64,000 nucleotides of DNA, taken from positions 143,350 to 207,349 of IMG/VR virus record IMGVR_UViG_3300028591_000083; one strand, written 5' to 3'. Positions 1,572 to 28,589 of this stretch are shown here, piece after piece (within the stretch, counting starts at the first letter, position 1; every line of letters begins with the position of its first letter). The notes under the pieces were generated by a model, which saw nothing but the letters and a program-made list of their open reading frames with translations, did not search any database and had not been told where the DNA came from. The position numbers were made by a program, and so were the translations under genes. Source of the DNA: a virus. Taxonomy: Duplodnaviria > Caudoviricetes.

Positions 1572-2786
1572 TCAAAATAATTTCTTCTTTCTACTATTTT
1601 CTTTTATAGTAGCTTCTACTCTTTGTTTTCCTACTGCGCAATATGGATTTTCTTCTGAATTGCATAATTCTACATCTATATATCTTAAAGAATATCCACT
1701 TTCATAATTTAATTTTTCACAAGCTACAGCATGAGTACAACTTCCGGCTGTTATATCAATAGTAAGTCCTTCTTTCGGCGTAATTAGTTTAATTAACCAA
1801 GAAATTAGATCTATTGGTTTTAGAGTTACATGAGGATTTCTTTTACCGTTTGGAAGTAGTCTTTCTGACGGACTTACTTTAGGACAGTATTTGAAAACAG
1901 GAAATAATCTTGAACCGCCACCTGAATCTCCATATCCGCCAAGAGAATCATTCTTATAGTTATCGTTGGTTTCTTGATTGAACGCTCCGTAAATATGTCT
2001 TGCACGACATACTGTAGATGCTTTACCAGAACAACCTGTTGATTTTGTAACTCCTGTTTGCCTATCAACTTCATCTGTGATATTGTCAGCTAAAACAATA
2101 TTCGGCGGAAATCTACCGGCTTCATTTGCAGGAACCGCAATGTCTTGAGCATAAGCTCCATAAACTTTATCTTCTTTATTTGAATAATTAGTAGTTGGAT
2201 TCTTAGAAGCCTTTGCATTTAACATATCAATATCTTCTTTTGAAATAGGAACTCTACAAGCTCCTATATTCATTCCGCCAACTCCGTACTTTTCAATATT
2301 CTCAATATATGTTCCTTCTAATGGTTTTTGAAAGATTGTTATTGTTTCGTGTGCTGGTTTTAGCCCTGCTGTTTTCCAATCATTCCATTTTTCTGAAAAT
2401 TCTGAACTGCTGACCCCATTCTTTCGATCATACATTTTTCCGATATCTTGATTTGACGGCATACCGCTGCAATAGATCCAATCAACTTCTTCAACAATAG
2501 TAAATCCAGAATCTTCAAAAGCAGATTTCATTCTATGATTAGTTTTAGGACTTCCAAAGATAGCTGCATATGATCCATGTTTCATAATTCTGATAAGTTC
2601 TTTTGCTCGTTCTTCGCACCACCCATAGAAGTTCTTACTGGAATCCCAATTTTTTCCCATAAAATCAATAGCGTAAGGAAAATCAGATATGCATGAATCA
2701 ATAGAATTATCTTCTACTGATTTCATCCATTCTATATTATCTGCGTTTATAATTTTGCCGGATTTAGATTCATAAATTATTTCCAT
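1572..2786 (-). CDS. DNA N4/N6 methyltransferase with variant motifs
   Basis: SDFPY (DPPY variant), LKPAHE, HVTLKPIDLISWLIKL, and DITAGSCT (FxGxG variant). Confidence 0.85.
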   Translation of the reverse strand: MEIIYESKSGKIINADNIEWMKSVEDNSIDSCISDFPYAIDFMGKNWDSSKNFYGWCEERAKELIRIMKHGSYAAIFGSPKTNHRMKSAFEDSGFTIVEEVDWIYCSGMPSNQDIGKMYDRKNGVSSSEFSEKWNDWKTAGLKPAHETITIFQKPLEGTYIENIEKYGVGGMNIGACRVPISKEDIDMLNAKASKNPTTNYSNKEDKVYGAYAQDIAVPANEAGRFPPNIVLADNITDEVDRQTGVTKSTGCSGKASTVCRARHIYGAFNQETNDNYKNDSLGGYGDSGGGSRLFPVFKYCPKVSPSERLLPNGKRNPHVTLKPIDLISWLIKLITPKEGLTIDITAGSCTHAVACEKLNYESGYSLRYIDVELCNSEENPYCAVGKQRVEATIKENSRKKKLF

Positions 2787-22065: not shown

Positions 22066-24306
22066 TTAACCCTCCGAACAAAGAAGAATAAACTGAGATT
22101 CAATCATTGGTTTCGGTGTAGATTCCCACTTAATATCTGTATTCAGCTTCATTACAGCATTAAGAAGATCTGAGAAGAAAGAATAGTGTTCTTTTGTATA
22201 TGACTTCATCTTATCTTCATATGATGTCGGCAATTTCAAGAACTCAAAAGAACGGCAAACATCATATTTGCACAGGTCAAGAACAAAGTAATTGTATTCA
22301 TTAATAAACTGTTTAAGATCAATACCATCTCTGTGAATAGTCTCAATAATTTCAATAACTTTTTGCTTATTCATATTATATAGAGAATCTGTCAACTCAA
22401 ACATAATACTATAATCAATAGAACCAAGAGCTTTTGTAACAATATCTAAAGTAAGATTATCTGAATATCCGAGTGCTTTTTCCATAAGAGTAATAGCATC
22501 TCGCATTCCACCTTCAGACAGCTTCGCAATATAATCAATCGCATCTTCTGTATATGTGTAGTTATGTCCTTCATTATTTTCTGAATCAAGGATGAATTTC
22601 AATCTGTTCACAACTCCGGAATGCGAAATACGCTTAAAATCATATCTTTGAACTCTTGAAAGAATTGTTTTCGGAAATTTCTGAGGATCTGTAGAACAAA
22701 AAATAAAAACACTTGTCGGTACCGGCTCTTCAATAGATTTCAGTGCAGCTTCCCACGCTGCTTTAGAGAAGTTGTGAGCTTCGTCAAGTAAAAACACACG
22801 GTAATCAGTTCCAATAGGCTTACTTCTTGCTTGATTTAGAATACTCTTCATATCTTCAACACCGTTATGTGAAGCCGCATCCAATTCTACTATTGTAGAA
22901 TTGATAGAGTTTGCAAAAGTTCTTGCCAATGTTGTATTGTGAGTTGGAACAAAATTATCTGTTATATATGTATGATCTTCATGGTCTACATAAATACACT
23001 GACATTCTTCTTTTCCAACATATTTTATTGCCACTATTTTTTTAATCGGATCACTCTGTCTTTTTTTCCTCCTTCTTAAATGTTTCTCAGAGGAACAATA
23101 TACAAGATTATTTGGAAACTTTACATGATGCCTATATGATGTTGAGCAAATAACTTTTTCCCCATCTTTATTTATATAATTTGATTGTCTACTGGTTACA
23201 GTATCTCTACACCCCAAAGACCTTACAAGGAATGAAAAGTCATCCGATAACTGCTTACTAGATGTTGAAAACTCAGTTACGCCATTTTCAGATGTATATC
23301 CGTCAGAATCAAAAAGTCCTCTCAAGAGTTCCAATCTCGTATCTATGTCATTTAATAAATATTCTTTCGGTATAAATTTATCTGTTGATTTAACACAAAT
23401 ACCAAGATTCCTTAAGTCATCTCTGAAGCTAACATGGTTTGAATAATTATCGTTCGCTACTCTTTTTATTTTTCCAAATAACTCAGGATATTTTCCAAAC
23501 GTAGTTGATGCATCTCCTGTTGAAATTCTATATATTGTTTCTTGATCAAATTTTGGATACCCGATAGAATTCAAATCCTCAATTAACTTATATGGTCCTT
23601 TATATGTTATATTATTAAATATATAGAAATTCTTAAAATTATCTTGTTTTCCGGAGATTCTGTAATCATACTTTGATCTATATTTAACATCACAGTCATA
23701 CTTACTCAAAATATCAGATACCTTGTCTATTACATCTTTCTCGTTGTTTGAGAATCCAAAGCTACCTCCGCATAAGTTACCGTCACCTAAAAGAAATCCA
23801 ACTAAATAAGGATCAATGGGGATTTCTTTTTTTGAAAACGGTACTGTTGGTATCTCAACGCGCAATTTCTTTTTAGAGGTTTCAAACAATTTAATTAAAT
23901 CACGGGTTTCTATAACAAAATAATCATTTCCTTTTCGTTTTCCATTATATGTATAGATGCAGTTCAAATGATTATCAGCAACACGTATTGATGTTTTGTC
24001 GTTAAAACATATTTCATACACATCTCTAACACCTTGATTAAATACACCAGAAACAACTGCAACGCTGCCTGTGTGCGTGATTACCTCTGAACCGCACTTA
24101 ATGTCTTTCATCTTAACAAACCCGTTCGGCGTCAGAACATCACTGTCAAGCGGCTGTGCTTTACCACATCCAGAAGATCCGCAGAACAGATACGTATTCC
24201 TAATCTTATTCTCTTTAATATGATTCAATAAGATATCTTTTACAACGGATTGTTCTACAGTGTCTTCAAATGTTTTCGGGCGATACTTTACAGCTAATGA
24301 TTGCAT
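22066..24306 (-). CDS. dnaX: Clamp loader gamma/tau subunit with intein
   Basis: LAVKYRPKTF, GSSGCGK|TT, ELDAASHNGVE, LDEAH, TILSR, GGMRDA. Confidence 0.93.
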   Translation of the reverse strand: MQSLAVKYRPKTFEDTVEQSVVKDILLNHIKENKIRNTYLFCGSSGCGKAQPLDSDVLTPNGFVKMKDIKCGSEVITHTGSVAVVSGVFNQGVRDVYEICFNDKTSIRVADNHLNCIYTYNGKRKGNDYFVIETRDLIKLFETSKKKLRVEIPTVPFSKKEIPIDPYLVGFLLGDGNLCGGSFGFSNNEKDVIDKVSDILSKYDCDVKYRSKYDYRISGKQDNFKNFYIFNNITYKGPYKLIEDLNSIGYPKFDQETIYRISTGDASTTFGKYPELFGKIKRVANDNYSNHVSFRDDLRNLGICVKSTDKFIPKEYLLNDIDTRLELLRGLFDSDGYTSENGVTEFSTSSKQLSDDFSFLVRSLGCRDTVTSRQSNYINKDGEKVICSTSYRHHVKFPNNLVYCSSEKHLRRRKKRQSDPIKKIVAIKYVGKEECQCIYVDHEDHTYITDNFVPTHNTTLARTFANSINSTIVELDAASHNGVEDMKSILNQARSKPIGTDYRVFLLDEAHNFSKAAWEAALKSIEEPVPTSVFIFCSTDPQKFPKTILSRVQRYDFKRISHSGVVNRLKFILDSENNEGHNYTYTEDAIDYIAKLSEGGMRDAITLMEKALGYSDNLTLDIVTKALGSIDYSIMFELTDSLYNMNKQKVIEIIETIHRDGIDLKQFINEYNYFVLDLCKYDVCRSFEFLKLPTSYEDKMKSYTKEHYSFFSDLLNAVMKLNTDIKWESTPKPMIESQFILLCSEG
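22936..24159 (-). mobile_element. 408-aa Ala1 (class 3-type) intein with LAGLIDADG homing endonuclease in the DnaX Walker A
   Basis: Starts AQPLDSDVLTP, ends FVPTHN|T; LVGFLLGDG and LLRGLFDSDG motifs. Confidence 0.9.
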
Positions 24307-25327: not shown

Positions 25328-25527
25328 GCGTGATTCAGATGTGTGATATCCGAATCACGCCAGCAGCGTTTCACTGCTTTCACCAAAGGTGTTGTTTCCT
25401 CAGTTGGTTTTTAACGGAGGTACAAACAAAAACGAACCCGAAAGACACAAATAGGCAAAAAAGTATCTGCTAAAGTAGCTTGTTTGTAACAGAATTGATC
25501 TCTAAACCAACAAACAATCAGTTCTGT
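25328..25527 (-). ncRNA. Candidate multi-hairpin ncRNA 3' of tRNA-Asn
   Basis: Three stems: gcgtgattc/gaatcacgc, tacaaacaa/ttgtttgta, acagaattgat/atcagttctgt. Confidence 0.4.
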
Positions 25528-25532
25528 CTGAA

Positions 25533-25605
25533 CTCCCGATACTGGACTTGAACCAGTGACACCCTGATTAACAGTCAGGTGCTCTACCAACTGAGCTAAT
25601 CGGGA
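25533..25605 (-). tRNA. trnN: tRNA-Asn(GTT)
   Basis: Canonical cloverleaf; anticodon arm CCTGA-CTGTTAA-TCAGG. Confidence 0.95.
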
Positions 25606-25612
25606 ATATAAA

Positions 25613-25764
25613 TGTCGGAGGTAGGGTTTGAACCTACACAGGAATAGCATGAACAAAGAGTATTTGTTTGACGTCATCCTAGGCTATAGTCAAACTCATC
25701 CTTGTTTAATTCTTTCCAACCGGAGCCTGCTTCCGGCGCGTCATACCTATTGCGCCACTCCAAC
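25613..25764 (-). ncRNA. tRNA-Leu(CAG)-like RNA with an 82-nt variable arm
   Basis: Acceptor GTTGGAG/CTCCGAC+A, D arm, CCGGA-AGCAGGC-TCCGG, T arm GTAGG-TTCAAAC-CCTAC. Confidence 0.75.
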
Positions 25765-28497: not shown

Positions 28498-28589
28498 TGG
28501 TGGATCTTCTGGGACTCGAACCCAGACAAAGCCTTGTAAGGGTCTACGCTTTATAAGAACGTGGCTTTCACCGATTAAGCTAAAGATCC
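28498..28589 (-). tRNA. trnI: tRNA-Ile(TAT) with a long variable arm
   Basis: GGATCTT/AAGATCC acceptor, ACGTT-CTTATAA-AGCGT, 20-nt variable arm, CCA. Confidence 0.85.

Follow-up and report, generated by a model that had tools for sequence, protein, structure and literature searches.

A tRNA-Leu-shaped RNA gene with an 82-nucleotide variable region in a phage tRNA cluster

The window analysed here, a 64,000-nucleotide (nt) stretch of phage DNA forming the last 64 kb of the 207-kb virus record IMGVR_UViG_3300028591_000083 (33% GC), encodes on its minus strand, from position 25764 to position 25613, a 152-nt RNA in which a complete tRNA-Leu-type cloverleaf is combined with a variable region of 82 nt that folds into one long hairpin. 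Comparison with homologues from related phages indicates that this RNA, hereafter the giant-arm RNA, is real and selectively maintained, and neither a chance fold nor a recent insertion. With a probability of roughly one half, we read it as a tRNA-Leu-derived, non-decoding, "tRNA-framed" RNA, in which the tRNA body would confer processing and stability and the arm would be the working part.

Fold and tRNA-Leu identity

Every element of the giant-arm cloverleaf that an initial annotation had drawn on the minus strand was found at its place (Table 1; positions within the RNA are counted along the minus strand, position 1 being 25764). The fold is that of a canonical cloverleaf, with a 7-base-pair (bp) acceptor stem, a 3-4-bp D stem, a 5-bp anticodon stem and a 5-bp T stem. 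U8 and G9 precede a D arm of the form GCG / CAATAGGTATGA / CGC, whose 3-bp stem closes a 12-nt loop carrying G18 and G19, and the nucleotides of the tertiary fold, namely U8, A14, G18, G19:C56, U54, U55, and A58, are all present. The variable arm comprises the helices GGAA/TTCC, AACAAGGA/TCTTTGTT, and GTTTGAC/GTCAAAC, and ends in a 16-nt loop. Left unconstrained, RNAfold returns precisely this cloverleaf with its single long arm hairpin as the minimum free energy (MFE) structure (-43.1 kcal/mol); the folding-energy z-score of the RNA on its own is modest (-1.67). The RNA lies in a tRNA-rich stretch, 6-7 nt from a tRNA-Asn, and this annotated placement beside a tRNA gene is confirmed by ARAGORN and Rfam, such that co-processing of the two RNAs appears probable.

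ARAGORN did not call the giant-arm RNA, and no Rfam family, the tRNA family RF00005 included, matched it at gathering score or at E<=10. When the arm was trimmed computationally to 13-18 nt, ARAGORN with its default settings called 12 of 12 trimmed versions tRNA-Leu(CAG), and each of the five natural variants, when trimmed likewise, was called a tRNA-Leu, with the anticodons CAG, AAG, AAG, TAG, and TAG. It is thus only the arm that hides the RNA from both tools, and since neither the usual tRNA finders nor Rfam detect it, phage genes of this kind have probably been missed systematically. A covariance model (R1) built from the five natural variants scores full-length copies at 171-172 bits (172 bits for the window copy), while its next twelve matches, at 41-51 bits, are all tRNA-Leu genes, T4 tRNA-Leu among them. 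Of the checks suggested by the initial annotation, ARAGORN and Rfam returned nothing; the covariance model and the relatives revealed covariation in the arm.

The D arm and the anticodon stem correspond almost base for base to those of class II tRNA-Leu genes in related phages (L005), and E. coli tRNA-Leu has a D arm of the GCG...CGC type as well. A73 and the Leu-type D arm are kept in all variants, and the RNA might be charged by leucyl-tRNA synthetase (LeuRS). The variable region measures 82 nt in the window and 80-81 nt in the relatives, compared with a class II range of about 10-24 nt. Taken on sequence features, the giant-arm RNA descends from a class II tRNA-Leu gene, and the annotated tRNA-Leu-type body with a conserved hairpin is supported by A73, the class II D arm, and the NAG anticodon.

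Several other identities were considered and rejected. A tRNA-Gln with a 74-nt intron was proposed by ARAGORN in intron mode with lowered thresholds only, and its mismatched anticodon stem makes it a poor alternative. A tRNA intron in general does not fit, as the insert is located in the variable region and not near the anticodon loop, and no intron or ribozyme of Rfam matched at E<=10; moreover, a group I core would not fit into 82 nt. No ribozyme or other known RNA was recognised within the arm (Rfam, E<=10), and neither the transfer-messenger RNA search of ARAGORN nor Rfam gave a tmRNA match.

Relatives and covariation

Scans with exact or degenerate patterns covering the T arm with the acceptor stem, the arm tip, and the 5' part in IMG/VR, JGI metagenomes, and 185,579 species genomes yielded one related contig only, BLAST of a 601-nt region against GenBank phages gave generic tRNA or T-arm matches only, and a search of IMG/VR with the neighbouring 175-amino-acid (aa) protein found no match. 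Further homologues were reached solely via the neighbouring proteins, i.e., a RusA-like resolvase and the 175-aa protein. All relatives are derived from rumen or gut assemblies, and the homologues fall into two phage clades. Members of the close clade (L042, L045-L048) are about 91% identical to the window copy, and those of the second clade (L002 and L050-L053, the latter 95% identical to L002) are 76-80% identical to it, while the flanking DNA is unalignable between the clades.

In the five distinct intact variants, standard pairs make up 97.7% of the 175 pair cells, a share that falls to 35-49% once the partners are shifted by 1-3 columns. Both members are changed in five pairs: acceptor pair 3:70 is U.G, U-A, or A-U depending on the variant; D-stem pair 11:24 goes from C-G to U-A in L050, with a C.A intermediate in L002; arm pair 64:108 appears as G.U, U-A, and, in L043, U.G; arm pair 66:106 changes from A-U to G-C; and the tertiary elbow pair G19:C56 is replaced by A19:U56 in L050. 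By eye, a U-A pair of the inner arm helix is in addition swapped for C-G in the second clade. The T loop keeps U54, U55, and A58, position 56 being the one that covaries with position 19. As the sample comprises two clades with six distinct sequences, this covariation represents a handful of events and not a statistical proof. Nevertheless, the compensatory events are found to touch every helix that varies, as well as a tertiary contact that is explicable only by the L-shaped fold. The covariation, including that of 19:56, implies that selection keeps the tRNA fold together with the added arm, and hence that the combination does something. The scenario named beforehand as fatal to the annotation, in which relatives would carry a normal tRNA-Leu with a recent, unconserved insertion, did not materialise, since the relatives show either the same arm with compensated changes or no gene at all.

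Anticodon loop and arm tip

Between the window copy and L002, five of the seven anticodon-loop positions are changed, compared with 25 of 145 positions (17%) elsewhere in the RNA (Fisher p=0.0035), so that the loop changes about four times faster than the remainder; in the same comparison, none of the 20 positions in the anticodon and T stems is changed (0/20), and 2 of the 16 in the arm tip are. The loops of the relatives read AGAAGGC, AGAAGGA, and UAUAGAA. Position 33 is G or A in every variant and never U33, and the L002 clade carries A37 in place of G37. The anticodon loop is thus relaxed or altered, in agreement with the initial annotation, which had classified it as a non-decoding type on the window copy. 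The annotated non-decoding scaffold holds in part: a conserved hairpin does sit on a tRNA-Leu body, but the constancy of A35 and G36 keeps decoding possible. The particular roles suggested in that annotation, namely a decoy for anticodon nucleases, a modulator of a synthetase, the ribosome or a T-box, or a carrier for a regulatory RNA, are conjectural.

The arm tip (consensus UAUARCCUAGGAUGAY, with CCUAGG at its centre) is the most conserved single-stranded part of the RNA, 2 of its 16 positions varying across both clades. The corresponding hexamer CCTAGG occurs once in the window and four times in 207 kb, where about 17 copies would be expected. As a separate observation, the 207-kb genome strongly avoids six-base palindromes, many of which are present in 0-1 copies (GACGTC occurs once, inside the giant arm), and TCCGGA is found in 87 copies, with about 17 expected and no extended shared context. 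A kissing dimer via CCUAGG was also considered; its self-duplex reaches -10.6 kcal/mol, but 15% of shuffled loops are as good, and the idea is therefore left without statistical support.

Genomic context and dispensability

In the L002/L050 clade, the giant-arm RNA follows 5 nt after a tRNA-Arg(UCU). The sister phages L054-L056 have tRNA-Arg(UCU), 6 nt, and tRNA-Asn in direct succession with no giant-arm RNA between them, and L003, L004, and L057-L065 are likewise devoid of it, with L064 and L065 carrying an ordinary tRNA-Leu(UAG). Two contigs, L043 (212 kb) and L044, carry a 1.9-kb element of the IS607 type within the arm, which it splits after position 104. Absence from sister phages together with this interruption shows that the gene is accessory and not essential. 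For the L043 TnpB, a guide that extends into arm sequence is to be expected. Among genome-encoded proteins, the nearest to this TnpB comes from a rumen Erysipelotrichaceae metagenome-assembled genome (MAG), and as the identity of 43% is too weak, no host can be named from it.

The idea that the arm itself is a miniature transposon or the footprint of an insertion sequence (IS) was rejected: the arm is single-copy in its own genome and in that of L002, the ends of the IS are unlike the arm, and the empty site is complete. The uninterrupted arm is the ancestral state and not a footprint of the IS607-type element.

These observations bear on the notion that the locus is a dying tRNA-Leu pseudogene with a neutral variable-loop insertion and no function. 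Such a fate would account for the absence of the gene from sister clades, where in L054-L056 tRNA-Asn directly succeeds tRNA-Arg, for its disruption in L043 and L044, and for an anticodon loop that is degenerate by decoding standards. It would not account for compensatory changes that preserve four helices and a tertiary pair between clades that are 76-80% identical and whose flanks cannot be aligned, nor for an arm tip that is the best conserved of all single-stranded parts, and the arm is neither a repeat nor an IS footprint. We thus consider a functionless remnant very improbable.

Proposed role and rival explanations

For the tRNA-framed RNA favoured here, we propose that the giant-arm RNA would be transcribed within the phage tRNA operon and, because the full L-shaped tRNA core is kept, would be excised by the ordinary tRNA enzymes, with ribonuclease P (RNase P) forming the 5' end and the 3' end being trimmed and completed with CCA. 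No promoter-like site is present directly upstream of the gene; strong sigma-70-like sites are located farther up the tRNA region (29963-29935 and 30661-30633). The anticodon loop would have been freed from decoding-type constraints, and the variable arm, a conserved hairpin of about 35 base-pair equivalents with its near-invariant 16-nt tip, would constitute the working part, the tip presumably docking a protein or another RNA. If so, the tRNA body would act as a frame that supplies the right ends, stability, and possibly access to the tRNA machinery. More tentatively, and with doubts of our own, we speculate that the tRNA variable arm serves as a natural display site, whose CCUAGG tip binds one particular partner from host or phage, or joins the RNA to a second copy of itself, that the molecule is possibly still recognised or charged as a tRNA-Leu, and that it is one member of a wider, undescribed giant-arm class in phage tRNA clusters.

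A number of findings weigh against a non-decoding, tRNA-framed RNA. A35 and G36 are the only two loop positions unchanged between the clades (chance 1 in 21); every variant therefore spells a Leu CUN anticodon (NAG, i.e., CAG, AAG, or UAG), which hints at a codon- or anticodon-related constraint. U33 is reportedly not strictly required for decoding, according to work on yeast amber suppression by Bare et al. (Nature, 1983). The giant-arm RNA might fill the tRNA-Leu(UAG) slot of L064 and L065. A search for the complement of the arm tip in the phage genome found no site at <=4 mismatches save the locus itself, so a partner was not found there, and the covariation statistics are weak at two clades and six distinct sequences.

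The fold itself is also less unequivocal in the second clade, in which the unconstrained MFE structure is another one, 3-5 kcal/mol better than the cloverleaf. The arm strand GUUUGAC (25689-25695, minus strand) has two possible partners, GUCAAAC in the arm and the T-loop region GUUCAAAC (25626-25633), and RNAalifold on two sequences pairs it with the T loop rather than with the arm partner. A U-to-C change of this strand in the second clade is matched by A-to-G changes in both candidate partners, and both pairings fit all variants. The local arm hairpin is preferred, as it is the MFE structure in three variants, but an alternative fold or a switch between arm hairpin and T-loop pairing is conceivable.

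Phage tRNAs have been proposed to replace host tRNAs or to act in counter-defence (van den Berg et al., 2023, PMC10264068; Azam et al., 2024, PMC11555353). By analogy, the giant-arm RNA could be a working tRNA-Leu for CUN codons that is a poor substrate for host tRNA-cleaving defence nucleases owing to its loop (a purine at 33; variation at 32, 34, 37, and 38) and oversized arm and replaces the host tRNA-Leu during infection, which we regard as rather unlikely. A35, G36, and a purine at position 37 in all variants, with the Leu anticodons CAG, AAG, and UAG, would fit this explanation, as would the kept A73 and tRNA-Leu D arm, and an arms race with anticodon nucleases would be predicted to produce rapid change in the anticodon loop alone. 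CUU is the commonest Leu codon of the phage (35%) and CUA accounts for another 15%; relatives lacking the giant-arm RNA possess a normal tRNA-Leu(UAG). Furthermore, bacterial LeuRS reads neither the variable arm nor the anticodon, and the tRNA-Leu genes of related phages, only 74-77 nt in length and with no long arm, suggest that arm length is freely variable in this phage group. On the other hand, U33 is absent from every variant, the L002 clade carries A37 where a CUN-reading tRNA-Leu normally has G37, and the CAG of the window copy would read CUG, a rare codon that makes up 7% of the Leu codons of the phage. To our knowledge, no bacterial enzyme that edits A34 exists outside tRNA-Arg, and the arms known to pass through the ribosome are all far shorter than one of about 35 base-pair equivalents. 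A working tRNA would also leave the near-invariant arm tip unexplained, and the 128-nt relative in L054/L056 has a degenerate anticodon stem. If the giant-arm RNA nevertheless still decodes, it would stretch the tolerance of ribosome and LeuRS and bear on phage resistance to tRNA-cleaving defences.

A decoy or sponge acting through the tRNA body, in which an uncharged or unusable mimic of tRNA-Leu would sequester some tRNA-binding factor of the host (for instance a nuclease of the anticodon or the acceptor end, LeuRS, a Leu T-box leader, or RelA) while its arm mainly bars it from the ribosome, appears distinctly unlikely. The L-shaped core with 19:56, A73, and A35-G36 retains just those features that T-box leaders and many tRNA-binding proteins read, and the TnpB match (43%) to the Erysipelotrichaceae MAG is a weak hint that a T-box-using Firmicutes host is possible. 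Position 34, however, is C, A, or U across the variants, so that no single specifier codon or nuclease recognition sequence fits them all, and a mimic meant to attract anticodon nucleases ought to reproduce the host loop with its U33, which the giant-arm RNA does not. Conservation of the arm-tip sequence would again be left unexplained. The phage has no gene for a nuclease, a synthetase, Ro60 (TROVE), RtcB, a CCA-adding enzyme, or a reverse transcriptase that would point to a pathway.

Comparison with known RNAs

In the literature searched, no natural tRNA was encountered whose variable arm comes at all close to 82 nt. Relative to that literature the giant-arm architecture is new, and it is related to class II tRNAs and to the stable RNAs of phage tRNA clusters. 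With class II tRNA-Leu it shares the 7/3/5/5 helix plan, U8, A14, G18 and G19, a UUCRANY-type T loop, A73, a NAG anticodon, the position in a tRNA operon, and the GCG...CGC D arm of the genes in related phages, but it differs in its 82-nt variable region, the purine at position 33, the fast-changing anticodon loop, and the missing RF00005 match.

The species 1 and species 2 RNAs of T4 (rnaC and rnaD; 139 and 119 nt) are small stable RNAs encoded in a phage tRNA cluster as well, and their roles are still unknown (PMC3014915). Their order in T4 is tRNA-Arg(UCU), rnaD, rnaC, and the giant-arm RNA also directly follows tRNA-Arg(UCU) in the L002/L050 clade; besides, the 3' end of rnaC consists of a canonical T arm and an acceptor-like helix, as in the giant-arm RNA. 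In contrast, no sequence homology is detectable, model R1 matches T4 tRNA-Leu but neither rnaC nor rnaD, and rnaC has no recognisable D and anticodon arms, whereas the giant-arm RNA is a complete cloverleaf with one extra arm. By analogy, it may be of one kind with T4 species 1 and other small stable RNAs encoded among phage tRNA genes. Should the display-site proposal be true, it could give the 50-year-old puzzle of T4 species 1 RNA a testable model, and whether its arm docks a partner or it still decodes, the giant-arm RNA is a simple and easily mutated system in which to study those small RNAs of phage tRNA clusters that have no explanation yet.

For Lak megaphages, tRNA genes of unusual size containing conserved introns termed "enigmatic" have been reported (Devoto et al., 2019, PMC6784885). 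The likeness lies in oversized tRNA genes of large gut phages, with a highly conserved extra segment, that bacterial settings miss. The Lak inserts were placed by tRNAscan in eukaryote mode as introns of the anticodon loop, and one of them may itself encode a tRNA, whereas the insert described here is a covarying hairpin in the variable region that bears no intron hallmarks. YrlA and other bacterial Y RNAs (RF02553; Chen et al., 2014, PMC4201824) are non-coding as well and include a tRNA-like module; some are encoded by phages. YrlA was rejected as an identity, as the score was 14.4 bits against a gathering score of 69, the match covered the T arm and tRNA-Asn, and no TROVE or RtcB gene is present; the ends of the giant-arm RNA, moreover, form a normal acceptor stem and not a Ro-binding stem.

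Engineered tRNA scaffolds for recombinant RNA use a tRNA body to give a foreign hairpin correct processing and nuclease resistance in vivo (Ponchon and Dardel, cited in PMC3401473), and we propose that the giant-arm RNA works on the same principle. The giant-arm RNA, in contrast to such scaffolds, is natural, has its insert in the variable arm, and keeps the anticodon arm. In the scaffold of Ponchon and Dardel, the insert is said to replace the anticodon arm. If the giant arm is a docking module, phages would have arrived independently at the tRNA-scaffold trick of biotechnology.

Other features of the locus and of related phages

Table 1. Coordinates of the giant-arm RNA, its parts, and further features (window positions unless a relative is named).
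Feature	Position	Strand	Remarks
Whole 152-nt tRNA-Leu-shaped RNA gene	25613..25764	-	A73 at 25613; CCA not encoded
Acceptor stem, 5' strand GTTGGAG (pos 1-7)	25758..25764	-	7 pairs with 25614-25620
Acceptor stem, 3' strand CTCCGAC (pos 145-151)	25614..25620	-	followed by A73
D arm GCG / CAAUAGGUAUGA / CGC	25738..25755	-	class II tRNA-Leu type; G18 G19
Anticodon arm, stem CCGGA/UCCGG	25720..25736	-	stem identical in all variants
Anticodon loop AGCAGGC	25725-25731	-	anticodon CAG; G33 replacing U33; G37
Variable region, 82 nt (pos 46-127)	25638..25719	-	single long irregular hairpin, three helices
Apical loop, 16 nt, UAUAGCCUAGGAUGAC	25673..25688	-	CCUAGG palindrome centred, 25678-25683
T arm GUAGG-UUCAAAC-CCUAC	25621..25637	-	canonical; stem identical in all variants
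Ordinary tRNA-Asn(GTT)	25532..25606	-	6-7 nt downstream; ARAGORN; Rfam tRNA 71.2 bits
IS607-type element	L043:198-2129; right junction L044:1-330		192-aa serine recombinase and 406-aa TnpB
Spacer, 130 nt	L002:5070-5199; L050:2570-2699		giant-arm RNA to tRNA-Asn
Non-coding stretch, ~200 nt	25328-25531	-	between tRNA-Asn and 175-aa open reading frame
tRNA-Ile(UAU), 92 nt	28498-28589	-	CCA encoded
tRNA-Leu(CAA)/(UAG), 74-77 nt	L058:920-993; L063:1151-1225; L064:1490-1564 and 1686-1761; L065:1441-1516 and 1958-2032		no long arm
128-nt element	L054:167-294; L055:207-334; L056:1063-1190		25-31 bits to model R1
tRNA-shaped RNAs, 143-149 nt	L064:1147-1289; L065:613-761		z-scores -2.8, -4.9
Clamp-loader gene	22066-24306	-	746 aa, with intein

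Two non-coding stretches adjoin the tRNA genes (Table 1). In the second clade, the giant-arm RNA and tRNA-Asn are separated by a conserved spacer (about 88% identical) with several stable hairpins, which has no counterpart in the window phage. The hairpin-containing stretch on the other side of tRNA-Asn shows about 66% conservation relative to the L002 clade.

In this phage group, tRNAs seem unusually plastic in their variable arms and anticodon loops. The tRNA-Ile(UAU) of the window carries a class-II-like variable arm of about 20 nt, and its counterparts in related phages measure 76-95 nt, the length difference residing in the variable region. Conversely, the short tRNA-Leu genes of L058 and L063-L065 are unusual for a bacterial-type tRNA-Leu in having no long arm. 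The 128-nt element of L054-L056, a clade with no giant-arm RNA between tRNA-Arg and tRNA-Asn, combines a D arm of the tRNA-Leu type, a T arm, A73, and an acceptor stem with a degenerate anticodon stem and a shorter, different insert; it may be a divergent or decaying relative of the giant-arm RNA. The tRNA-shaped RNAs of L064 and L065, which are miscalled by ARAGORN, possess normal acceptor, D, and T arms and a multi-hairpin domain of about 75 nt in place of the anticodon loop.

Apart from the tRNA genes, the window encodes a clamp loader (DNA polymerase III gamma/tau-like) that contains a LAGLIDADG intein. In close relatives the gene is free of the intein (338 aa), and other inteins are present in the clamp loaders of L054-L056 (745 aa) and L059 (782 aa, with a Hint domain).

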